In this document: one piece after another, positions 6,865 to 35,445 of the stretch | How positions within the stretch are numbered: the first letter of the stretch is position 1 | How the letters are laid out: each line of letters begins with the position of its first letter | From: Leptolyngbyaceae cyanobacterium | Lineage (GTDB): Bacteria > Cyanobacteriota > Cyanobacteriia > Cyanobacteriales > Aerosakkonemataceae | DNA length: 35,445 bases | NCBI GenBank assembly: GCA_036703985.1 | Contig: DATNQN010000123.1 | Location: forward strand, 126,816 to 162,260 | Direction: 5' to 3' | Program-made: the position numbers and the translations under genes | Notes under the pieces: generated by a model | Databases searched by the model: none | The model's input: only the letters and a program-made list of their open reading frames with translations | Told to the model about the DNA's origin: nothing

Positions 6865-6890
6865 GTAGTGAGGACTTTAGTCCTCACTAC
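6865..6890. repeat. 26-bp perfect palindromic SDR GTAGTGAGGACTTTAGTCCTCACTAC; contains the stop codon and last codons (..VCSED*) of the FGGY kinase gene
   Basis: Palindrome read directly from the sequence. The same unit recurs at 7714-7767, 16477-16557 and 23341-23366. Confidence 0.85.
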
Positions 6891-8319
6891 AAACTGTGAT
6901 ATCATTCCCAACACCCCTCATCGCCAACAGCGCCGTACCATAAGCAGCAGCAGTATTCACTGGCGGTAAAATAGGTACTTTTAAATAACGAGCGCGAATT
7001 GCCATCCAAGTAGGATTCTTTGCACCACCGCCAGCAGTATAAACGCGAGTTAACGGCGTTGCACCAAATTGTTGCAATAACTGATAACCCCGTGCTTCAA
7101 TCCGAGCAATACTTTCCAACAAACCATGCAAAAATTCCGCTGGATTTTCCGGTCGAGGTGATAACTTTGGCTGCAAATTCGGGTCATTAATAGGAAAGCG
7201 ATCTCCTGGTTTCAACAAAGGATAATAATCAAGCAAAATCTCGTTTTCTCCATCAATTTCTTTACTTAAATTTTCCAATTCACTATCAGTAAAAAACTGC
7301 CGCAACACCGCACCACCAGTATTAGACGCACCTCCAACTAACCATAAATCAGACCTCGCCCCCAACCCCTCTCCTGCAAGGAGAGGGGAGTAATTCTCCC
7401 CCCTTCCCTGGTAGGGAAGGGGGGCTGGGGGGGTTAGGTTTATTGGTAACCTATGACTGTAAATTCCATATTTTGCATCATCTACGCGAGTGCGACTCAA
7501 CAATTTAATCACCAAAGTAGAACCCAAAGATGTACTAGCTTCACCGGGAGAAGTTGCACCGCTAGCAAGAAATGCGGCAATACTATCAGTAGTCCCCGCA
7601 CAAACTACGCAATCTTTTCTTAAACCTAAACTATGAGCAATTTCCAATGTTACTTCACCTATCGGAGTTCCCGGTGCAACAACTTCCGGCAATTGTATCG
7701 ATATATCTTCTAAGTTCGTAGTGAGGACTTCAGTCCTCAAAAAAGGACTAAAGTCCTTACTACAAACTAGCCATTCCGGATAACAGAGATTTTCCACATC
7801 GTAACCGAGTTTCAAAGCATTGTGATAATCACTAATTCCTAATTTTCCATGTAATAAAAAAGCCAACCAATCTGCCTGATGCAAAAAATAAAACCTTCTC
7901 TTATCCCCCCCTTGGTAAGGGGGGTTAGGGGGAATCTTTTCTAACCACCAGAAGAGTTTGGCGAGGGAAGAAGTAGCGCTGATTACGGTATGGTTTGGCG
8001 GTGCAATTTCCCTCACTTTATCCAATACTTCTGCACCCCGCGCATCGTTATACAAAAGCGGTTCATCAATTGGATTACCAGCAGCATCACAAAGTAGCAC
8101 GGTAGAGGAAGTCCCGTTCATACAAATCGCTTTAATTTGCTCCCGTAGTTGTTGAGGAATTTGGTGAATGAGAGAAAACAAAGCTTGCTGCCAAAGGTTT
8201 GCTAAATTTACTGAATTTTCAAATGGATATTGCGTTTCAGTTTCGATAATTCCTGTTTCATTGATTAATATTGCCCGTGCGCCAGATGTACCAAAATCGA
8301 TGCCAAGGTAGAGGTTCAT
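6877..8319 (-). CDS. FGGY-family carbohydrate kinase (xylulokinase/glycerol-kinase-like)
   Basis: N-terminus MNLYLGIDFGTSGARAILI is the FGGY N-terminal ATPase signature. The protein is 480 aa. The frame is intact despite four repeat insertions (see the repeat features). Confidence 0.8.
   Translation of the reverse strand: MNLYLGIDFGTSGARAILINETGIIETETQYPFENSVNLANLWQQALFSLIHQIPQQLREQIKAICMNGTSSTVLLCDAAGNPIDEPLLYNDARGAEVLDKVREIAPPNHTVISATSSLAKLFWWLEKIPPNPPYQGGDKRRFYFLHQADWLAFLLHGKLGISDYHNALKLGYDVENLCYPEWLVCSKDFSPFLRTEVLTTNLEDISIQLPEVVAPGTPIGEVTLEIAHSLGLRKDCVVCAGTTDSIAAFLASGATSPGEASTSLGSTLVIKLLSRTRVDDAKYGIYSHRLPINLTPPAPLPYQGRGENYSPLLAGEGLGARSDLWLVGGASNTGGAVLRQFFTDSELENLSKEIDGENEILLDYYPLLKPGDRFPINDPNLQPKLSPRPENPAEFLHGLLESIARIEARGYQLLQQFGATPLTRVYTAGGGAKNPTWMAIRARYLKVPILPPVNTAAAYGTALLAMRGVGNDITVCSED
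7362..7436. repeat. two GC-rich mini-palindromes (CCCCTCTCCTGCAAGGAGAGGGG at 7366-7388; CCCCCCTTCCCtggtaGGGAAGGGGGG at 7398-7424) inserted in-frame in the FGGY kinase CDS
   Basis: Perfect palindromes read from the sequence. They translate to ..LPYQGRGENYSPLLAGEGLGA.. inside the kinase. The same C-run/TT..AA/G-run architecture is found inside the MITE-like elements. Confidence 0.7.
7714..7767. repeat. compound palindromic SDR (GTAGTGAGGACTTCAGTCCTC-AAAAAA-GGACTAAAGTCCTTACTAC) inserted in-frame in the FGGY kinase CDS
   Basis: Same family as 6865-6890. It translates to ..LVCSKDFSPFLRTEVLTT.. on the minus strand. Confidence 0.8.
7903..7936. repeat. GC-rich mini-palindrome CCCCCCCTTGGTAAGGGGGG + TTAGGGGG inserted in-frame in the FGGY kinase CDS
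   Basis: Palindrome read from the sequence. It translates to ..IPPNPPYQGGDKR.. in the kinase. Confidence 0.7.
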
Positions 8320-13865: not shown

Positions 13866-16460
13866 ATGACCACTTCCCAGGAGCGGATTATACCGACGGA
13901 TTTAGGGAACGAGATGTCCCGATCGTACCTGGAATACGCCATGAGCGTGATTGTAGGTCGGGCACTCCCAGATGCCAGGGATGGTCTGAAACCCGTCCAC
14001 CGTCGCATTCTCTACGCGATGCACGAGTTAGGACTAATGCCAGACCGACCTTTTCGGAAATGCGCCCGCGTGGTAGGGGAAGTGTTGGGTAAGTATCACC
14101 CCCACGGGGATACGGCAGTATACGACGCCCTGGTGCGGATGGCCCAGGATTTCTCCATGCGATCGCCCTTGATCAACGGACACGGTAACTTCGGTTCCGT
14201 CGATAACGACCCCCCAGCGGCGATGCGTTACACCGAATGTCGCCTGCACGCATTGACGACAGAAGCAATGTTGCGGGATATCGAAGCAGAAACCGTTGAT
14301 TTTGGCGATAACTTTGACGGTTCCCAGCAAGAACCCCTCGTTTTACCCGCGAGAGTTCCCCAGCTATTGCTGAACGGTTCCTCCGGGATCGCCGTGGGAA
14401 TGGCAACCAACATCCCGCCTCACAATTTGGGAGAACTGATTGACGGTTTGGTAGCGCTGATCCAAGACCCGGAAATTACTGATATCCAATTGATCAAATA
14501 TATACCCGGCCCTGACTTCCCCACGGGCGGGCAAATCTTGGGAACCACCAGTATTAAAGAAGCTTACACCACCGGGCGCGGTTCGATTACCATGCGGGGC
14601 GTAGCAAGAATTGAAACCGTCGAACAGCGAGGTCGTCCCGATCGGGAAGCCATTATCGTCACCGAGTTACCATACCAAACCAATAAGGCAGCTTTAATCG
14701 AAAAAATTGCCGAACTAGTTAACGACAAACGGTTAGAAGGAATCGCCGATATTCGGGATGAAAGCGATCGCGATGGAATGCGAATCGTGATCGAACTAAA
14801 ACGCGATGCTTATCCGAGAGTTGTCCTGAATAACCTTTACAAACAAACGCCATTACAAGCAAACTTCGGGGCAAATATGCTAGCCCTGGTGAATGGCGAA
14901 CCGCAACTTTTAACTCTCAAACAATTCCTCAGCGTTTTCCTCGATTTCCGCATTGAATGCGTTACCCGTCGCACTCAATACGAACTAAGAAAAGCCGAAG
15001 AAAGAGACCATTTATTGCAAGGGTTATTGATTGCGCTGGCTAATTTAAGTGCCATCATCGAATTGATCCGCCACGCAGCTGATGCGCCAACTGCCCGTCA
15101 GGAAATGATCGAAAACTACGGGCTTTCCGAAGCACAAGCAGATGCGATCCTGCAAATGCAATTGCGGCGATTAACCGCATTAGAAGCTGAAAAGATCCGC
15201 CAAGAACATGAAGATTTACAAGTACAAATTACCGATCTGCGGGATATTTTAGCGCGGCGAGAGCGCGTTTTGGAAATCATCGAAACCGAAGTCAAGCAGC
15301 TAAAAACTACCTTTGCCACTCCCAGACGCACCACCATCGAACACGCGGAAGGAGAAATCGACGATACCGATTTAATTGCCAATGAAAAAGCGCTGATTCT
15401 GGTAACAGAACAAGGTTACATCAAACGGATGCCAGTGAATGCTTTTGAAGCACAAAGTCGGGGAACTCGCGGCAAAGCAGCTAACCGCATGAAAGAAGAT
15501 GACGGTGTAGAACACTTTTTGACTTGTTGCGATCACGACAGCGTTTTATTATTTAGCGATCGCGGTGTCGTTTATTGTTTGAAAGCTTATCAAATTCCGG
15601 CTTCATCTCGTAACGCCAGAGGCGTTCCCATCGTACAGATGTTGCCGATACCGCGAGAAGAAAAAATCACCTCGATCGTATCAGTAGCAGAATTCACCAG
15701 CGATGAATATCTGATCATGCTAACCGCAGGTGGTTATATTAAAAAAACCGAATTGGCAGCTTTTAGCAATATCCGCGCCAATGGATTAATTGCCATTTCT
15801 TTAGAAGAAGGCGATCAATTGCGGTGGGTACGTCGCGCCCGTGATGAAGATAGTATTATCATCGGGTCTCGTCTGGGCATGGCAATTCATTTTAGGGCCG
15901 ATCGCGAACAATTGCGTCCTTTAGGTCGCGCCACCAGAGGCGTCAGGTCAATGTCCTTGAAAGAAGGCGATAGCCTGATCAGTATGGACGTTCTCCCCGG
16001 ATCGGTGTTAAATACCGCCTTAAGCGCAGCAGCAGAGGAAGAAGAAGAAAGCACTTCTGCCAACATAGAAACTGTCGAAGCAACGGAAGAAGCCCCGATC
16101 GCCGCCCCAGTTGGCCCTTGGGTCTTGGTAATCACCACCGGAGGATACGGCAAACGAGTGCCAGTATCTCAATTCCGCTTGCAAAATCGTGCCGGAATGG
16201 GGATTCTCGCCACCAAATTCCGCAAAACAACCGATCGCCTAGCCGCATTGCACATCGTCAATCACGATGACGAGTTAATGATGGTAACGAGTCGAGGTAT
16301 CATCATCCGCCAAGTAGTCAATGCCATCTCGCCCCAGTCCCGCATGGCAACTGGTGTCCGGGTACAACGCTTGGACGAAGATGATGCTATAGCAGCTGTT
16401 GCATTAGTTCCCCCCACTAGTGAAACTAGTGAAAATGGAGAAGAAGAAGAGACTGAATAA
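13866..16460 (+). CDS. gyrA: DNA gyrase subunit A
   Basis: The N-terminus carries [32 protein letters not shown] with the catalytic Tyr region. Six C-terminal beta-pinwheel repeats follow. A cyanobacterial-type acidic insertion and an acidic C-terminal tail are present. Confidence 0.97.
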
Positions 16461-16476
16461 CTAATAGCAAGGTGGG

Positions 16477-16557
16477 CAAAAGGACTAAAGTCCTTACTAC
16501 AAACCATAAAAATTAAATTGTTAGTTCGTTTGTAGTGAGGACTTCAGTCCTCAAACC
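16477..16557. repeat. compound SDR: two inverted copies of the GTAGTGAGGACT..AGTCCTCACTAC-family unit (16477-16504 and 16528-16557) separated by 23 bp, between gyrA stop and lnt start
   Basis: Read from the sequence. The second unit contains an in-frame ATG (16535) that the ORF track used as the lnt start. Confidence 0.8.
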
Positions 16558-16570
16558 GCAAAAAAGTTAC

Positions 16571-18187
16571 ATGAAAATCAAAATCATATGGCATTTCGCC
16601 ATCTCTTTATTTGGCGGTATTCTAATGGGGTTAACAACTGCCCCAGTAAATGCTTGGCCATTAGCATGGATAGCCCTAATTCCCCTCTGGATTTCAGTAA
16701 TTAAAACTCAAAACAAACCAAAACCATTTCACCCTTCACCCTTCATCCTTCATCCTTTACTTTGGGGTATCGGATATCACGGCATTGCCTTATTTTGGAT
16801 TACCGGAATTCACCCCATGACATGGCTGGGAGTTCCCTGGTGGCCGAGTTTAGCGATCGCAATTTTTTGTTGGACGTTCATCACTCTTTGGGGTGCGGCA
16901 TTAGTTACCGTTTGGGCGATCGCCTCTAAAACCATTTTCAACTTAATTGAAAATCCCAAATCTCCCCTCAAAAATAGCCTTTTTCGCATCTTAATCGGCA
17001 CGACTTTTTGGTGTGCTTTAGAAACCTTTTGGAGTTGGGGCGATTTATGGTGGACATCCCTATCTTACACCCAAAGCCCCCACAATCTCCCAATTTTACA
17101 CCTCGCTCAAATTTCCGGCCCCAACACGATTACAGCCGCTATCGTAGCCGTAAACGCAACAATTGCTGAATTGGTCATCGGTCATTGGTCATTGGTCATT
17201 AATAAAGAAAAACATAAGTTATATCGAAAAATTTTCCCTAAATTACTGGTTATCATTAGTTTCTTAGTAGGATTGCATTTAATAGGATTTTTTCTCTATA
17301 ATCGTCCCCTGATTCAAACACCAGAAACCGCATTAAAAGTAGGAATCATTCAAGGCAATATACCTAATCAAATCAAATTCAATTCAGCCGGATGGTATCG
17401 CGCTATCGAAGGTTATACCACCGGATATCGCGAGTTAGCAGATCGGGGAGTCGATGCAGTTTTAATCCCCGAAACAGCATTACCATTTATCTGGACAGAT
17501 CCGAATCAAGTCCCTCGTTCCTTTTACTCTGCCGTATTAGAAAAAGGCGTAGTTGCTTGGGTAGGAGGTTTTGGACAAGAAGGAAATAATTTTACCAACA
17601 GCTTATTTACAATTAGTGGCAATGGTAACATTTTCAGCCGTTACGACAAAGTAAAATTAGTTCCCTTGGGAGAATATATCCCCTTTGAAGAAATCGTCGG
17701 AAAATTAATCGATCGCCTTTCTCCCCTAGACGCCCATTTAGTGAAAGGAAAACCAACTCAAATATTTGAAACCCCTTTTGGGCGTGCCATAGTCGGTATT
17801 TGCTACGATTCGGCTTTTGCTAAACTCTTTCGCCGTCAAGCTGCGGCGGGCGGGCAATTTATTCTCAGCGCTTCTAATGACGCCCATTATAAAGCATCGA
17901 TGGCTGCCCAACACCATGCCCAAGATGTAATGCGGGCAATTGAGAACGATCGCTGGACTCTCAGAGCCACCAATACAGGTTATTCTGCGATCGTAGACCC
18001 CCACGGCAGAACTCTGTGGATATCGAAAATTAACACTTACGAAATTCATGCGGCAACAATTTATCGGCAACAGAGTCAAACCTTATATGTTCGCTGGGGA
18101 GATTGGTTAACACCCCTTTTGCTAGCAATAGTTACGACCACTAGTGCAGGAGAATATTACTACCAAAGGGTGAAGTCGGAAGTCTAA
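16571..18187 (+). CDS. lnt: apolipoprotein N-acyltransferase
   Basis: An N-terminal polytopic membrane domain is followed by a CN-hydrolase domain (VGICYDSAFAKLFRR..SASNDAHY). The start at 16571 (MKIKIIWH..) is preferred over 16535, which lies inside the SDR. The CDS contains two in-frame heptamer arrays. Confidence 0.85.
   Translation: MKIKIIWHFAISLFGGILMGLTTAPVNAWPLAWIALIPLWISVIKTQNKPKPFHPSPFILHPLLWGIGYHGIALFWITGIHPMTWLGVPWWPSLAIAIFCWTFITLWGAALVTVWAIASKTIFNLIENPKSPLKNSLFRILIGTTFWCALETFWSWGDLWWTSLSYTQSPHNLPILHLAQISGPNTITAAIVAVNATIAELVIGHWSLVINKEKHKLYRKIFPKLLVIISFLVGLHLIGFFLYNRPLIQTPETALKVGIIQGNIPNQIKFNSAGWYRAIEGYTTGYRELADRGVDAVLIPETALPFIWTDPNQVPRSFYSAVLEKGVVAWVGGFGQEGNNFTNSLFTISGNGNIFSRYDKVKLVPLGEYIPFEEIVGKLIDRLSPLDAHLVKGKPTQIFETPFGRAIVGICYDSAFAKLFRRQAAAGGQFILSASNDAHYKASMAAQHHAQDVMRAIENDRWTLRATNTGYSAIVDPHGRTLWISKINTYEIHAATIYRQQSQTLYVRWGDWLTPLLLAIVTTTSAGEYYYQRVKSEV
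16728..16759. repeat. heptamer array (CCCTTCA/TCCTTCA x~4.5) in-frame inside lnt, encoding ..FHPSPFILHPLL..
   Basis: A 7-bp periodicity read from the sequence. It belongs to the same CCTTCAT/ATGAAGG family seen in intergenic arrays at 18188-18245, 21185-21226, 29221-29262 and 34405-34425. Confidence 0.8.
17171..17200. repeat. STRR2-type heptamer array TTGGTCA x4 in-frame inside lnt, encoding ..ELVIGHWSLVIN..
   Basis: Exact TTGGTCA repeats read from the sequence. TTGGTCA is the STRR2 unit described in heterocystous cyanobacteria (recalled from memory). Confidence 0.85.
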
Positions 18188-18282
18188 AGGATGAAGTATT
18201 AAGTCTGAAGGATAAATAATAAAGGATGAAGGATGAAGTAAAAAGAATTTAATTTTGAATTTTGAATTTTGAATTTTGAATT
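18188..18282. repeat. intergenic heptamer arrays (AAGGATG/ATGAAGG-type followed by AATTTTG x5)
   Basis: The sequence reads aattttgaattttgaattttgaattttgaattc at 18250-18282. Spurious ORFs translate this region as HPSSF/ILHPLDF repeats. Confidence 0.8.
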
Positions 18283-18336
18283 CTCCACCATCCCCCCATC
18301 TCCCCATTTTCCCATCCCTCCACCCCGTCTTAACCT

Positions 18337-20121
18337 ATGACACTTCCTATCAACACATTCTTTGACGAAGGTTACTATAGCCTCAACAATCCTGATGTTT
18401 ATGCCGCCATTCTCAAAGGACAAATTAGTAACGGATACCAACATTTCATCAGCGTTGGTGCTAGAGATGGACGCAATCCAAGTGAAGTATTTGACAGCAA
18501 ATATTACTTAGGTTTGTATCCAGATATAGCAGCAGCAGTTGCTAATGGCAGCATTGCTAGTGCTTACGATCATTTCGTGCAATTCGGTGCTAGAGAAGGG
18601 CGCGATCCTTCTCCCTTATTCAGCAGCAGTTACTACCTCAGTCAATATCCAGATGTAGCAGCAGTTGTTAATAGTGGAGGCATTCGTAGCGCTTTCGATC
18701 ATTTTTTAGCATTTGGTGCTAACGAGGGTCGAAATCCCAGTTCATTATTTAATACTAGCGTTTATCTCAGTCAAAATCCAGATGTGGCTACTGCGGCTGC
18801 TACAGGTGTAATTAGTGCTTTTGAACATTATATTCGCTTCGGTAAAAACGAACAAAGACCGGGTGTATTAGCCGATCGATTCGACATTCAATTTGACTAT
18901 CGTTTTGATACCAATCGTTTTTTTGCCGACCCGGTAAGAAGGGGTGTTTTAGAAGCAGCAGCTAATGTCTGGGAATCTTATATCCAAAATGAATTTAAAG
19001 ATGTTCCTGCTGGTACTTCATTTAGATTTCTCAATCCTACATCTGGTTTGATTGAAGAATTAAGTTTAAATTCTGATATTGATGATTTGCTAATTTTGGT
19101 AGGGGCAGGGCCAACACCTTTTGGCGACTTAACCGATGCTTTGGCAGCTTCTGCTACAGAAGGTTACGAAACTACTGGCAGTACCTACTACAACCGATTA
19201 ACTGGCTCTCAATTTCAACCTTTTCTCGGTACGCTTTCGTTTAATTCCACATTAAATTGGTTTTTCGATCCCTCGCTGGATACATCTAATGATATCCCCT
19301 CCGGGGCGCAAGATTTTTACAGTACTGCTTTGCACGAAATCGCACATATTTTGGGATTGGGAGGCGCACCTATTTTCCGACAATTAGGTGAAGGGGCTTT
19401 GTTTAACGGTGTGAATGCCAAAAATGTAAATGGCGGTTCTCCGATTCCTTTAGAAACCGATTTAGGACATATCAAAGATGGTTTTTTAAGTGATGGTCAA
19501 CCAACGTTAATGGACCCCACTTATCCGAATGCTCGAATTATTCCCACGCGGGTAGATTTGGCAATGTTGGCGGATATTGGTTACCGAATTCCCGGTTTTC
19601 AACCGCAAGGTTCTTTATCAACTTTATCAACTCCTAATGATGACACTATTTTTGGTACGGTGCAGAATGATGTCATCAATGGTAATGCTGGTAATGACTA
19701 TCTTTTGGGTGATTTAGGTGCGGATATTCTCAGGGGTGGTGCTGGGGATGATATCGTTTCTGGGGAAGATGATAATGATATCTTATTTGGCGATCGCGGA
19801 AACGATCGAGTATCGGGCGGTTTAGGCGATGATATCATCATTGGTGGCCCTGGCGATGATAACTTGTTTGGCAGCGGTGGGCGAGATACATTTATTTATG
19901 ACGCTGGCAGAGATGCGATCGCGGATTTCCGAGTATCAGAAGACATAGTACAAGTAAGTCGAGCCCTCGGTTTTGCTAATGGTGCTGCTGCTTTCAACGC
20001 GATTACTACCGGGACGAATGACAATGGCGATCGCTATTCCATCTTGACAGTTACTTCCCAAAACATCCTCACCATCTTCCACGATGTGCCGATGACAGCA
20101 GCTAACTTTACAGTTGTCTAG
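18337..20121 (+). CDS. secreted RTX-type (hemolysin-type Ca-binding repeat) protein with four N-terminal ~46-aa tandem repeats and a central metzincin-like domain carrying a degenerate HEIAHILGLGG motif
   Basis: There is no N-terminal signal peptide. Four repeats of ..YYLSQYPDVAAAV..G.I.SAFDHF..FGA.EGR.PS.LF lie at aa ~10-185. HEIAH is at nt 19333-19347, but the third His of HEXXHXXGXXH is replaced by Gly. GGxGxDxUx nonapeptide repeats occupy aa ~450-520, consistent with a T1SS substrate. Confidence 0.75.
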   Translation: MTLPINTFFDEGYYSLNNPDVYAAILKGQISNGYQHFISVGARDGRNPSEVFDSKYYLGLYPDIAAAVANGSIASAYDHFVQFGAREGRDPSPLFSSSYYLSQYPDVAAVVNSGGIRSAFDHFLAFGANEGRNPSSLFNTSVYLSQNPDVATAAATGVISAFEHYIRFGKNEQRPGVLADRFDIQFDYRFDTNRFFADPVRRGVLEAAANVWESYIQNEFKDVPAGTSFRFLNPTSGLIEELSLNSDIDDLLILVGAGPTPFGDLTDALAASATEGYETTGSTYYNRLTGSQFQPFLGTLSFNSTLNWFFDPSLDTSNDIPSGAQDFYSTALHEIAHILGLGGAPIFRQLGEGALFNGVNAKNVNGGSPIPLETDLGHIKDGFLSDGQPTLMDPTYPNARIIPTRVDLAMLADIGYRIPGFQPQGSLSTLSTPNDDTIFGTVQNDVINGNAGNDYLLGDLGADILRGGAGDDIVSGEDDNDILFGDRGNDRVSGGLGDDIIIGGPGDDNLFGSGGRDTFIYDAGRDAIADFRVSEDIVQVSRALGFANGAAAFNAITTGTNDNGDRYSILTVTSQNILTIFHDVPMTAANFTVV

Positions 20122-20130
20122 CGCTGGGCA

Positions 20131-20264
20131 ATGGTCATCAGTCATTTGTCATTAGTTATTAGTTATTAGTTATTAGTTAGTTTGCATTTACCACTAACCA
20201 CTAACTAATTAACAATCACTATTTTCCGATCGCAAATGACCGATGACCAATGACCAATGACCAA
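20131..20264. repeat. long imperfect hairpin built from heptamer arrays (ATGGTCA.., TAGTTAT x4 | ..CTAACCA, GACCAAT x3) between convergent RTX gene and cysH
   Basis: The left half (GGTCAT.., TAGTTAT array) is the reverse complement of the right half (ACTAACC.., ATGACC/GACCAAT array). GACCAAT is the reverse complement of STRR2. The array abuts the cysH TAA stop at 20265-20267. Confidence 0.8.
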
Positions 20265-20999
20265 TTAAAGATGAATCCCGCACTCTGTTTTTCCCATGCC
20301 GCGCCAGCGACCAGCCCGTTCGTGTTCCCCTTCTCTCACTGGCGTGGTCAGGGGTTCGTCGCCGATACTCGTGTAGCCTTGGTCATGTAGAGGATGATAA
20401 ATAACACCGTGTTTTGCGATATAACCCCATGTTTCCTTGCGCGTCCAGGTAGCCAAGGGATTAACTTTCAGCCGCCCGTTTTTATCTAATTCAAATATTT
20501 CCAGTTGGGTGCGAGTGTGGGCTTGATCCCGACGGCGACCGTTGATCCAGGCGATCGTTTTCAGTTCCCCTAGACCCCTTTGTAACGGTTCGACTTTTGT
20601 TAGATAGTGGAATTTTTCAATATCCTTCTGCCATAGATTTTGTCCGTAACGAGTGGCAAAAGCTTCGCGGGAGTTGACTTCCAGCGTTTTGTAAACCCGC
20701 AAATCCAAGTTGTAAACTTCCTTCGCTTTTTCTACAAACTCTAGAGTTTCCCGAAAGTGGTGCAGGGTGTCGAGAAATAGCACCGGGACTTTTGGCTTAA
20801 CTTTCAGAACGCGGTAAAGAACATCGATGATGACCATGCCGGTGACACCAAAAGCTGTTGTTTGTACCAATCCGGTAGGGATATTTTCCGCACACCAAGC
20901 CAGAATCTCTCTAGGATGGGCGGTTTCAAATCTTCGGTTAAGTGCATCTAGGTCAAACGTAGCAACTGGGGTCAAAGACGCGATCGCAGAACTCATCAT
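20265..20999 (-). CDS. cysH: phosphoadenosine phosphosulfate (PAPS/APS) reductase, thioredoxin-dependent
   Basis: The PAPS-reductase fold includes the LFLDTLHHFRET region. The C-terminal ECGIH matches the CysH ECGLH motif. No extra Fe-S Cys cluster is present. The protein is 244 aa. Confidence 0.85.
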   Translation of the reverse strand: MMSSAIASLTPVATFDLDALNRRFETAHPREILAWCAENIPTGLVQTTAFGVTGMVIIDVLYRVLKVKPKVPVLFLDTLHHFRETLEFVEKAKEVYNLDLRVYKTLEVNSREAFATRYGQNLWQKDIEKFHYLTKVEPLQRGLGELKTIAWINGRRRDQAHTRTQLEIFELDKNGRLKVNPLATWTRKETWGYIAKHGVIYHPLHDQGYTSIGDEPLTTPVREGEHERAGRWRGMGKTECGIHL

Positions 21000-21184: not shown

Positions 21185-21226
21185 TTCATCCTTCATCCTT
21201 CATCCTTCACACTTCATCCTTCACTC
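21185..21226. repeat. heptamer array CATCCTT/CACCTTC x6 overlapping the stop codon of tsaB
   Basis: The sequence reads ttcatccttcatccttcatccttcacacttcatccttcactc. The minus-strand TGA (21221-21223) lies in the last unit. Confidence 0.8.
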
Positions 21227-21883
21227 GATCGGATGCTGACCGTAAAAAGGCAGCGCCTCCGACCAATGGGGACGCAATCCTTTTTGCCAATCCAGATATG
21301 CCAGTTCCAACACGCTAGTCACCGAACCGCCCAAATTCTTCGGTGCTTCGATTAATTCATAGATATCTGGCCAATTTGCCAGGGTTTCTTCCCATTTTTC
21401 CGGCTTCATCACCGCATCTGGTAATAATTCAACTACACCAGCATCATTACCCGCCACCTTATATATAGCCACAAATATTTCACCCCGATGGGCAGGCAAC
21501 TGAACTGCCACCTGTTTAGAAAGACCTCCCTCTTTCTCAAATGACAAATGACTACTGACAAATGACGAGTATGCTGCTAACGAAGACACTGTAAACAATG
21601 GAATATCTAGCTGTTGGGCAATAGTACGCGCAGTAACTACCCCGATTCGAGTACTGGTGAAACTACCCGGGCCGATCGCCACAGCCATAAATGCCAAGTC
21701 TTCCCAAGTTTGAGGGTATATAAATTTACTTAAAATATCGTGTAAATGCGTAGATAATTCTACGCCTAATTCCCATGTTTGAGAGCGACGATCGTTCGTA
21801 AAGTCCCCGATCGCGATCCCTAATTCTCCGCTGGTTGTGTGAAGAGCAAGGCCGTATTTTCTTTTTTCTGGCAAAACCAACAT
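21221..21883 (-). CDS. tsaB: tRNA threonylcarbamoyladenosine biosynthesis protein TsaB (YeaZ-like, Kae1/TsaD paralog)
   Basis: The N-terminus LALHTTSGELGIAIGDF and the GPGSFTSTRIGVVTARTIAQQLDIP motif are typical of YeaZ/TsaB. The protein is ~220 aa. It contains an in-frame AATGACA-type heptamer array at ~21538-21570 encoding SSFVSSHLSF. Confidence 0.7.
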   Translation of the reverse strand: MLVLPEKRKYGLALHTTSGELGIAIGDFTNDRRSQTWELGVELSTHLHDILSKFIYPQTWEDLAFMAVAIGPGSFTSTRIGVVTARTIAQQLDIPLFTVSSLAAYSSFVSSHLSFEKEGGLSKQVAVQLPAHRGEIFVAIYKVAGNDAGVVELLPDAVMKPEKWEETLANWPDIYELIEAPKNLGGSVTSVLELAYLDWQKGLRPHWSEALPFYGQHPIE

Positions 21884-29220: not shown

Positions 29221-29262
29221 AGGCAAGGGGAAAGGATGAAGTATGAAGGATAAAGGATGAAG
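29221..29262. repeat. AAGGATG/ATGAAGG-type heptamer array directly 3' of cdsA
   Basis: The sequence reads aaggcaaggggaaaggatgaagtatgaaggataaaggatgaag. Confidence 0.7.
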
Positions 29263-34266: not shown

Positions 34267-34417
34267 GGGGCTAGGGGCTAGGGGCTAGGGGAAGAGGGGA
34301 AAGGGAGAAAAGGGGAAAGAGAAAATTTTGTGGCTCTTGAATTCTGACTCCTGACTCCTTTCCTTACTCCTGAATTCTGAGTTCTGAATTCTGAATTCTG
34401 AATTCAGCCTTCATCCT
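34262..34417. repeat. composite heptamer arrays (GGGGCTA x3, purine-rich GGGGAAAGGGAGAAAAGGGGAAAGAG, then pyrimidine-rich CTGACTCCTGACTCC.., TGAATTC x4, CCTTCAT x2) forming an imperfect long hairpin between convergent NUDIX and rlmN genes
   Basis: Read from the sequence. The purine-rich left arm partly complements the pyrimidine-rich right arm. The rlmN TGA stop (34418-34420) lies inside the terminal CCTTCATCC unit. Confidence 0.75.
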
Positions 34418-35445
34418 TCATCCTTTAGTTGCTCTTAATTGTCCGCAAGCGGCATCTGCTTCTAATCCTCGCGAATAGCGGACGCTAACTGCAATATGTC
34501 GCTTTTCTAAAGCTGATACGAAAGCTTGAATGCGTTTAGCATTGGGTCTTTGATAATCAGCTTCGTGAATGGGATTGTAAGGAATCAAATTAACGTGACT
34601 TTGGAAACCTTTTATATATTCAGCTAATTCTTGGGCGTGTTCTGGTAAATCATTTAATCCGGCCAAGAGAATATATTCAAAAGTTACTCTTCTGCCAGTT
34701 ATTTTTACATATTCCCGACATTCGGATAGCAAAGTTTCGATCGGATAATGTTTGGCACTGGGAATTAGTTTTTCTCGTAAAGTTTGATTGGATGCGTGCA
34801 GACTAACTGCTAAAGTAACTTGCAATTGATATTCTGCTAAACTGCGAATTTTACCAGGAATGCCAACCGTAGAAATAGTGATTCCTCGTTGTCCAATACC
34901 GACATCTTGATTGAGGGATTTGACGGCTCCAACTACATGATCTACATTCAATAATGGTTCGCCCATACCCATAAAGACAATGTGGCTGACGCGACGTTGA
35001 AAATCTTCTTGAACGGTGAGAACTTGATCGATTATTTCGTGGCGGGCTAGGTTGCGAATGAAACCGCCTTTGCCGGTGGCGCAGAAGTCGCACGCCATTG
35101 GACAACCAACTTGGGAAGAAACGCAAACAGTTAAGCGTTTTTCGGAGGGAATACCGACAGTTTCAATGATGTTTCCATCGTCAAGTTTGAGTAAATATTT
35201 GACGGTTTCATCGCTGGCAACTGAGCGATAATGAATAGTTGCTCGACCAATGTTTATGTCTGCTAAATCTTCTCGCCATTGTTTGGGAAAAACTGTAATT
35301 TCGGCAAGATTACGGATTCCTTTTTCATAAATCCATTGATGTAATTGACGACCTCGATATGCTGGTTGTCCTTGTTGTTTTACCCAATCGGTTAATTCTG
35401 TTAAATTTGCACCGAGTAGGGGTGGGGAGATGGGGGGATGGGGGG
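34418..35445 (-). CDS. rlmN: 23S rRNA (adenine2503-C2)-methyltransferase / tRNA m2A37 methyltransferase RlmN, radical SAM; 5' end runs off the window
   Basis: The radical-SAM CxxxCxxC motif reads ..[16 protein letters not shown]. Manual translation upstream of the ORF-track M (35098) stays open to the window edge and gives the RlmN N-terminal domain (..[50 protein letters not shown]..). The C-terminal Cys reads ..ADAACGQL. Confidence 0.9.

Follow-up and report, generated by a model that had tools for sequence, protein, structure and literature searches.

The stretch of DNA analyzed in this work (referred to as the window) comprises 35,445 nucleotides from a Leptolyngbyaceae cyanobacterium (GenBank assembly GCA_036703985.1, contig DATNQN010000123.1) and carries a gene for apolipoprotein N-acyltransferase, lnt, in whose coding sequence (CDS) arrays of tandem heptanucleotides are found. 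Two genes of the forward strand, gyrA (13866-16460) and a gene of the RTX type (18337-20121), flank the region, and a single long open reading frame (ORF), 16535-18187, lies between them. Counted from a conserved ATG, the lnt CDS extends on the + strand from 16571 to 18187 and encodes 538 aa; its identification is based on the NCBIfam equivalog TIGR00546, on its domains and on the orthologous protein P0001.

Analysis of the deduced amino acid sequence revealed a score of 278 bits against TIGR00546 (cutoff 132.9) and two Pfam domains, PF20154 (LNT_N) at residues 16-196 and the nitrilase-like PF00795 (CN_hydrolase) at residues 257-498. The Glu-Lys-Cys triad of Lnt corresponds to E301, K360 and C411, numbered from the ATG; these residues are invariant in 41 orthologues and align with the identical residues of Pseudomonas aeruginosa Lnt in the motifs PET, K-LVP-GEY and ICY. 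An AlphaFold2 (AF2) model was obtained with a mean pLDDT (predicted local distance difference test) of 64.8, and all 24 of its best PDB matches were Lnt structures, at a TM (template modelling) score of about 0.5. Judged from its sequence the gene is an otherwise canonical lnt, and its product is predicted to carry out the N-acylation of diacylated lipoproteins. The essentiality of lnt is documented for E. coli; as regards essentiality of the cyanobacterial gene, the literature turned up expression data only. The nearest relatives of the protein are found in filamentous cyanobacteria of the Oscillatoriales type. The closest one, from a single uncultured genome (locus L001, protein P0001), is 96% identical, has 538 aa and starts at the same Met, and it is followed at 72-77% by metagenomic proteins and by those of Aerosakkonema funiforme and Argonema antarcticum.

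The first-pass annotation of this DNA had noticed two in-frame heptamer arrays within the membrane domain of an otherwise canonical lnt, and both were recovered as calls of Tandem Repeats Finder (TRF). Array 1 (16730-16757, + strand) reads CACCCTT CACCCTT CATCCTT CATCCTT and encodes residues 53-64, FHPSPFILHPLL, at the end of the cytoplasmic loop predicted between helices H2 and H3 and at the start of H3; TRF placed it at 16728-16757 with period 7, 4.3 copies and 95% matches. Array 2 (17171-17200, + strand) encodes residues 200-211, ELVIGHWSLVIN, at the predicted cytoplasmic end of helix H6, and was placed by TRF at 17170-17200 with period 7, 4.4 copies and 91% matches. Its units at 17171-17198 read TTGGTCA TCGGTCA TTGGTCA TTGGTCA, so that the four copies of TTGGTCA that had been described are located correctly but are not identical, the second one being TCGGTCA; the translations given for the two arrays were both right. 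Not one of 2000 codon shuffles of the lnt CDS reached a period-7 score of at least 46, the two observed arrays scoring 46 and 55, and both arrays are real and non-random. A third array, of AATCCCA type and decayed, was identified at 16950-16977 on the + strand, where it encodes ENPKSPLKN. TRF made no call at about 16950-16977 in the window, and the orthologous site is still intact in L002 (AATCCCA, 4.4 copies) and L005 (AATCCAA, 4.4 copies).

Comparison of the units with the other repeats of the window indicated that they belong to families found elsewhere in it. The unit of array 2 is, after rotation and change of strand, a member of the AATGACC family, as is that of the intergenic array at 20235-20265. 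The CATCCTT unit of array 1 belongs to the AAGGATG family, whose other arrays in the window are located at 18187-18238 (directly after the lnt stop codon), 21185-21223, 29232-29262 and 34403-34425. Altogether 18 period-7 arrays were counted in the window, of which 9 are intergenic, 6 abut or overlap the ends of ORFs (several of these touching stop codons) and 3 lie wholly within ORFs, the ORF share of the window being about 83%. The units of the two lnt arrays, read on the coding strand, are free of stops in all three phases (LVIGHWS and HPSSFIL), but their reverse complements include TGA, and therefore only the coding-strand orientation could exist inside the gene.

Alignment of the orthologous proteins revealed that arrays 1 and 2 are both placed opposite gaps in P. 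aeruginosa Lnt and that both fall into linkers that are hypervariable in length among 26-41 cyanobacterial orthologues. The alignment of orthologues that had been proposed as a check accordingly put the arrays opposite gaps and hypervariable linkers and not on conserved residues, and the loops concerned would be cytoplasmic. Array 2 has four copies in seven genomes, namely the window, L001, L002, L088, L087, L089 and L090 (72-96% protein identity), and these copies are imperfect, with lineage-specific substitutions such as TTAGTCA, TCGATCA and GTAGTCA. At the same site the Aerosakkonema sequence (L005) carries a single copy (GAATTGGTCATTGACAAA), the DNA reading GAA TTGGTCA TTGACAAA, and is 21 nt or 7 aa shorter. 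The proteins P0005, P0008 and P0009 are likewise each 7 aa shorter at the array 2 site; for P0009, from Argonema, this is an observation at the protein level, and P0008 (L091) has in addition a 5-aa deletion downstream, which makes 12 aa in total over the H6-H7 linker. In these alignments array 2 appears as a clean indel of three units, exactly 21 nt or 7 aa, as expected from the earlier description of the arrays as 7-aa periodic inserts. That description is suited only in part to array 1, which is common to the window, L001, L088, L002 and L089 in differing states of decay: its last unit runs into the semi-conserved PLL with which helix H3 begins, and therefore it is not purely an insert.

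Short tandem repeats are prone to errors in assembly, and we considered whether the arrays could be an artefact of assembly or sequencing in low-complexity DNA. This explanation was rejected and is given practically no weight, since the same arrays, in the same phase and with the same copy number, were found in independent NCBI, JGI, ENA and Logan assemblies, in all of which the frames are intact.

A neighbour-joining tree constructed from 478 well-aligned columns with 200 bootstraps showed that the ten close relatives formed a clade (188/200), in which the array-bearing P0006 took the basal position. The array-less P0008 was the sister of the array-bearing P0004 and P0007 (191/200), and in none of the 200 bootstraps did the array-less taxa form a clade. 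The economical reading of this tree is that array 2 was ancestral to the ten-taxon clade and was removed from it at least two times, each time probably by a single frame-preserving deletion of three units.

The lnt arrays share with the contingency loci of host-adapted pathogens, in which simple-sequence repeats cause phase variation, a tract placed within an ORF and a unit whose length is not divisible by three. These are the formal requirements of a frameshift switch, and the heptamer tracts might thus be slippage-prone elements by which lnt is turned on and off (phase variation). The comparison of relatives speaks clearly against it. The window and L001 have 4 + 4 copies each in genes of 1617 nt that are 96.2% identical, with one substitution per array; array 2 is kept at four copies, in interrupted and imperfect units, throughout the seven genomes named above; the only changes in length observed are frame-preserving (-21 nt); and all 76 lnt ORFs examined in the survey described below are intact. 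Unlike contingency loci, lnt displays no copy-number polymorphism among relatives, its units are imperfect and the gene is always intact. Phase variation was rejected as very improbable because the copy number is constant and all ORFs are intact. The contraction or expansion that the first-pass annotation had suggested looking for among strains was not found in these relatives, the window being equal to L001 and the loss of 21 nt being the only difference seen.

In E. coli, Lnt crosses the membrane with eight helices, and its N- and C-termini are both cytoplasmic; the periplasm contains the conserved linker of H5 and H6 as well as the catalytic domain, which is inserted between H7 and H8 (PMC5500888). 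The H2-H3, H4-H5 and H6-H7 connections are therefore cytoplasmic. In the AF2 model of the window protein, helices were found at residues 56-78 (H3), 185-204 with an extension at 206-210 (H6) and 214-244 (H7). When mapped onto this model, array 1 would span the last part of the H2-H3 loop together with the opening turns of H3, array 2 would form the end of H6 on the cytoplasmic side, and the decayed third array would lie in the H4-H5 cytoplasmic loop.

The occurrence of such arrays in cyanobacterial lnt genes was surveyed with one genome per species; TRF was run on 80 stop-to-stop ORFs, which represented 76 genes after removal of duplicates. Period 7 was by far the commonest, with 64 of the 144 TRF rows, followed by 13 rows of period 14 and 5 of period 21. 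This predominance is the reverse of what is seen in normal coding DNA. Counting as an array any repeat of period 7 with at least 2.9 copies inside the protein, we found 38 arrays, and 27 of the 76 genes contained one or more. The three cytoplasmic loops accounted for 33 of them: 22, of 15 different unit families, mapped to the H6-H7 loop, 6 to the H2-H3 loop and 5 to the H4-H5 loop. Four more were located at the N-terminus or in H1 and one in the C-terminal tail, while the periplasmic loops, the helix cores and residues 236-505 (the catalytic domain, half of the protein) contained none. If the arrays were distributed uniformly, their absence from the catalytic domain would have a P of about 3e-12, a figure that exaggerates the significance, since related genomes are not independent. 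The sequences suggest that at least 15 unit families have entered the H6-H7 loop independently in different lineages, with up to 18 copies.

The longest of these tracts was observed in the lnt gene of Oscillatoriales cyanobacterium USR001 (L026, about 2150-2270), where 18 copies of GAAGGAA encode about 43 aa of EGRRKKE type in the H6-H7 loop; its H2-H3 loop carries six copies of TTCTTCC (SSFFLLP), which is the GAAGGAA family on the other strand. A 10-copy array was found in lnt of Okeania (L051). In the H4-H5 loop of P0098, from Microcoleus vaginatus HSN003, a peptide of about ISGTGILPGISQK is repeated in tandem about three times (alignment columns about 170-200), and a longer, non-heptamer DNA repeat is therefore likely in this cytoplasmic loop.

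The periodicity could also have resulted from selection on the peptide, favouring for example a hydrophobic extension of H3 or H6, and not from the dynamics of repeated DNA. Both encoded peptides are in fact hydrophobic and predicted to continue H3 and H6 as helix, and array 2 has been retained for long through most of its clade. Against this, the repetition is at the level of nucleotides with a period of 7, not of 3 or 21, and intergenic arrays on either strand are built from units of these families. In addition, the peptides found at the same sites of Lnt in other lineages are wholly different (EGRRKKE, FFLLPSS, NSQFPIP), and three lineages have cleanly deleted the insert. Selection on the peptide is in our judgement an unlikely origin of the repeats.

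The first start codon of the stop-to-stop ORF is the GTG at 16535-16537 (+ strand), most likely not used, and the first ATG is the one at 16571. The upstream start at 16535 had been described as an ATG, and it is this detail that was wrong. The frame is open from GTG to ATG and, as had been stated, adds a 12-aa extension, MRTSVLKPQKSY, overlapping the repeat GTAGTGAGGACTTCAGTCCTC. Alignment of the window with L001 revealed that the similarity starts at the ATG and that the gyrA-lnt spacers are unrelated; going upstream from the ATG, L001 meets a TGA after 8 codons, and no ATG, GTG or TTG is passed on the way. The Met of ATG 16571 is the annotated start in P0001, P0003 and P0008 and is internal in P0002, and a start at this codon gives an N-terminus about as long as that of P. 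aeruginosa Lnt. Because L001 lacks the repeat and homology begins at the ATG, ATG 16571 appears to be the conserved start, at which translation most likely begins. The 12-codon extension is then most likely an accident of the dispersed repeat, by which ORF finders over-extend the gene. The warning that a start prediction is easily fooled by the repeat was borne out in these respects: the extension has no counterpart in L001, homology sets in at the ATG and the GTG lies within a hairpin.

The opposite case, in which translation really begins at GTG 16535 and the dispersed repeat has come to encode an N-terminal extension of 12 aa, deserves attention because the frame between GTG and ATG is open and because the same repeat is read in frame in the FGGY kinase gene of the window, so that its translation is tolerated. 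The extension is, however, absent from the 96% identical strain and from every other orthologue, the GTG is buried in a stem of -39 kcal/mol, and the length of the P. aeruginosa N-terminus is already approximated from the ATG. We consider use of the GTG improbable.

The repeat that holds the GTG belongs to an inverted doublet located between gyrA and lnt. The 5' arm of this doublet (16481-16504, - strand) has 3 mismatches to the unit and its 3' arm (16528-16552, + strand) is an exact match to the unit GTTTGTAGTGAGGACTTCAGTCCTC. The arms 16481-16504 and 16528-16551, of 24 nt, are 92% complementary. For the RNA a long hairpin was predicted, with a folding energy of -39.3 kcal/mol (z = -7.8; none of 200 shuffles was as stable), in which GTG 16535 is base-paired within the 3' arm of the stem. 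With up to 3 mismatches allowed, a 21-mer of the repeat was matched 6 times in the window, where 0 matches are expected, and the exact 21-mer occurs in more than 120 metagenome contigs among the matches listed; the repeat was also found in Coleofasciculus loci. From 149 copies in 80 metagenome loci (L092-L171) a consensus unit of about 26 nt, GGTTyGTAGTGAGGACTTCAGTCCTC, was derived, which consists of a short tail and a 7-bp stem with a 2-nt loop and whose core positions are 93-100% conserved. Inverted doublets are common in these loci, mostly in +/- order with a spacing of 29-36 nt, while few pairs (2 of about 55) have the -/+ order of the doublet in front of lnt; L166 carries four direct copies at a spacing of 34 nt. 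Only 4 of 128 copies are within long stop-free frames. By its sequence the element fits a small dispersed repeat (SDR) or a repetitive extragenic palindromic (REP)-like element with doublets resembling REP doublet-forming hairpins (REPINs).

The doublet hairpin was not classed as a terminator, as there is no U-tract on the + strand; the only terminator-like matches in 16300-16700 are at 16588-16602, inside the CDS. No promoter-like site was found in 16300-16700. An Rfam scan of 16300-18400 detected no known RNA family, and only sub-threshold matches to eukaryotic miRNA precursors were obtained on the hairpin (best 31.7 bits, gathering threshold 90). The repeat is absent from the gyrA-lnt spacer of the 96% identical strain, but there the whole spacer differs and offers no clean empty site for comparison. 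It measures 590 nt in L001 (2411-3000) and 110 nt in the window (16461-16570, with the hairpin doublet), and the stop of gyrA and the ATG of lnt are the exact points at which the two sequences part. The L001 spacer holds an extra gene, for a 121-aa PF05635 protein (23S rRNA intervening-sequence protein / four-helix bundle), which is flanked by AATTCAG/GAGTCAG heptamer arrays.

The 26-nt repeat was also observed in the gene of the FGGY-type sugar kinase (6877-8319, - strand), in which the segments 7718-7763, about 7351-7446 and 6865-6890 are of special note. An inverted doublet is read in frame there as VCSKDFSPFLRTEVLTT; this segment and a further stretch of 32 aa, PINLTPPAPLPYQGRGENYSPLLAGEGLGARS, lie opposite gaps in the comparison with the solved homologue 5HTR. 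The stop codon of the kinase gene is within a third copy of the repeat.

At the other end of lnt, AAGGATG-family arrays, reverse complements of the array 1 unit, were called by TRF on the + strand over 18165-18245 (18165-18213, 18173-18216, 18187-18238 and 18187-18245). In the region 18165-18316, lnt ends inside this composite array, which includes its final codons and its TAA stop, and a perfect AATTTTG array of 4.6 copies and an array of C-rich 8-mers follow; the C-terminal tail of Lnt past the YYxQR motif is variable among the relatives. An in-frame array is also present in a tsaB-like gene (PF00814; ORF 21221-21883, - strand), where 4.1 copies of CAAATGA at 21538-21566 encode SSFVSSHLSF. 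In the L003 orthologue this site is shorter by a net 7 aa, a three-unit arithmetic like that of lnt array 2.

Taken together, these results make it quite probable that lnt has been colonized by the ordinary arrays of its genome, of the short tandemly repeated repetitive (STRR) type, that the arrays are passive passengers filtered by tolerance, and that translation starts at ATG 16571. A 7-nt unit read in frame runs through all three phases, so that three units (21 nt) make one period of 7 aa; only orientations free of stops in all phases can sit within a gene, and only net changes of three units maintain the frame. The arrays would arise and be resized by replication slippage and would persist only where extra residues are tolerated, that is, in the loops H2-H3, H4-H5 and H6-H7 and at the cytoplasmic termini of Lnt, far from the periplasmic active site. 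The two lnt arrays would thus be old, fixed and slowly decaying passengers and not switches, array 2 having been present in the ten-taxon ancestor and then lost at least two times by in-frame slippage deletions of three units. The in-frame GTG, which no stop separates from the gene, would have been supplied by the inverted doublet of the 26-nt hairpin repeat in the gyrA-lnt spacer.

Several points weigh against this explanation. Slippage would account for the loss and resizing of arrays, but it leaves unexplained how a single copy became the first in-frame array of four copies without frameshifted intermediates. Clean 21-nt arithmetic was sought at array 1 among the orthologues and was not found, the differences being 5 or 7 aa; orthologues without array 1 are 5 aa shorter and not 7, and therefore other indels are involved. 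In the neighbour-joining tree the grouping of P0009 with P0002 was supported by only 129/200 and P0005 was not firmly placed, and the number of independent losses can therefore be given as at least two, not as an exact figure. The array counts over the 76 lnt genes lack phylogenetic independence; the AF2 model, with its mean pLDDT of 64.8, is of moderate confidence only, and the topology is carried over from E. coli Lnt; and the non-use of GTG 16535 is deduced from comparison.

A broader proposal is that heptamer arrays are a recurrent, lineage-wide source of variation in the length and sequence of loops in cyanobacterial membrane proteins, with a quantum of 21 nt or 7 aa, and that they are possibly seeded in a targeted or templated manner, for instance by copying other arrays, and not merely by slippage and selection. 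We put this forward tentatively, as a proposal that is rather doubtful at present. If templated seeding were true, the arrays would map insertion-tolerant sites and would point to an unknown mechanism by which repeats spread inside genes.

The STRR heptanucleotide arrays of filamentous cyanobacteria, reportedly described by Mazel et al. in 1990, are said to be classically intergenic. The lnt arrays resemble them in having few tandem 7-nt copies, in families scattered over the genome on both strands and in a filamentous cyanobacterial host; they differ from them in being translated in the gene of a conserved enzyme and held to steps of three units. We take TTGGTCA to be the STRR2 unit of Calothrix, and its identity with the unit of array 2 is presumed. 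In 1997 Vioque reportedly found an STRR within the gene for RNase P RNA in heterocystous cyanobacteria. It is similar to the lnt arrays in being tolerated in a functional conserved gene at a structurally permissive site, but it belongs to an RNA gene, with no constraint of frame and no multiple-of-three rule, while the lnt arrays are coding. Small dispersed repeats are said to have been described by Elhai et al. in 2008. The element upstream of lnt shares with SDRs and REPINs (Bertels & Rainey 2011, PMC3116915) a conserved unit of about 26 nt, a hairpin of 7 bp and inverted doublets that form a long hairpin, and departs from them in its -/+ order, rare among pairs of the 26-nt repeat.

That heptamer arrays are not confined to intergenic DNA, as the first-pass annotation had concluded from the lnt arrays in the CDS, is correct and was already in the literature (PMC4692102, PMC4679880). 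Heptanucleotides are, according to Mrazek 2007 as cited in PMC4679880, the most abundant long simple repeats in many bacteria, cyanobacteria included. In Anabaena PCC 7120 about one third of the GGGGAYT repeats are intragenic (Rehm et al. 2015, PMC4692102), and TAACTGA repeats within ORFs encode LSVISYQ and are placed peripherally in the proteins (MacGregor 2015, PMC4679880). These intragenic repeats, like those of lnt, encode 7-aa periodic peptides, occur in stop-free orientations only and prefer peripheral positions. The earlier reports were genome-wide and concerned mostly hypothetical proteins, whereas lnt encodes a membrane enzyme of known structure on which the arrays could be mapped to loops and their gains and losses traced.

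The general point, that heptamer arrays are found inside cyanobacterial genes, is thus already known, and the lnt case reveals no new system or mechanism. What is new is a well-resolved case in a structurally characterized enzyme, with the footprints of three-unit indels and with sequence evidence that different heptamers have come to occupy the same cytoplasmic loops of Lnt independently in many lineages. For annotation there are two traps: dispersed hairpin repeats can donate an in-frame GTG and over-extend genes, and repeat-derived peptides can inflate the apparent divergence of proteins. The gene offers a worked example of how repeats whose unit is not a multiple of three may persist in the gene of a conserved enzyme, by being stop-free, changing in steps of three units and staying in cytoplasmic loops, and the pattern of the 38 arrays would amount to a natural map of where extra residues are tolerated in Lnt, a family of antibiotic targets whose structures have been solved.

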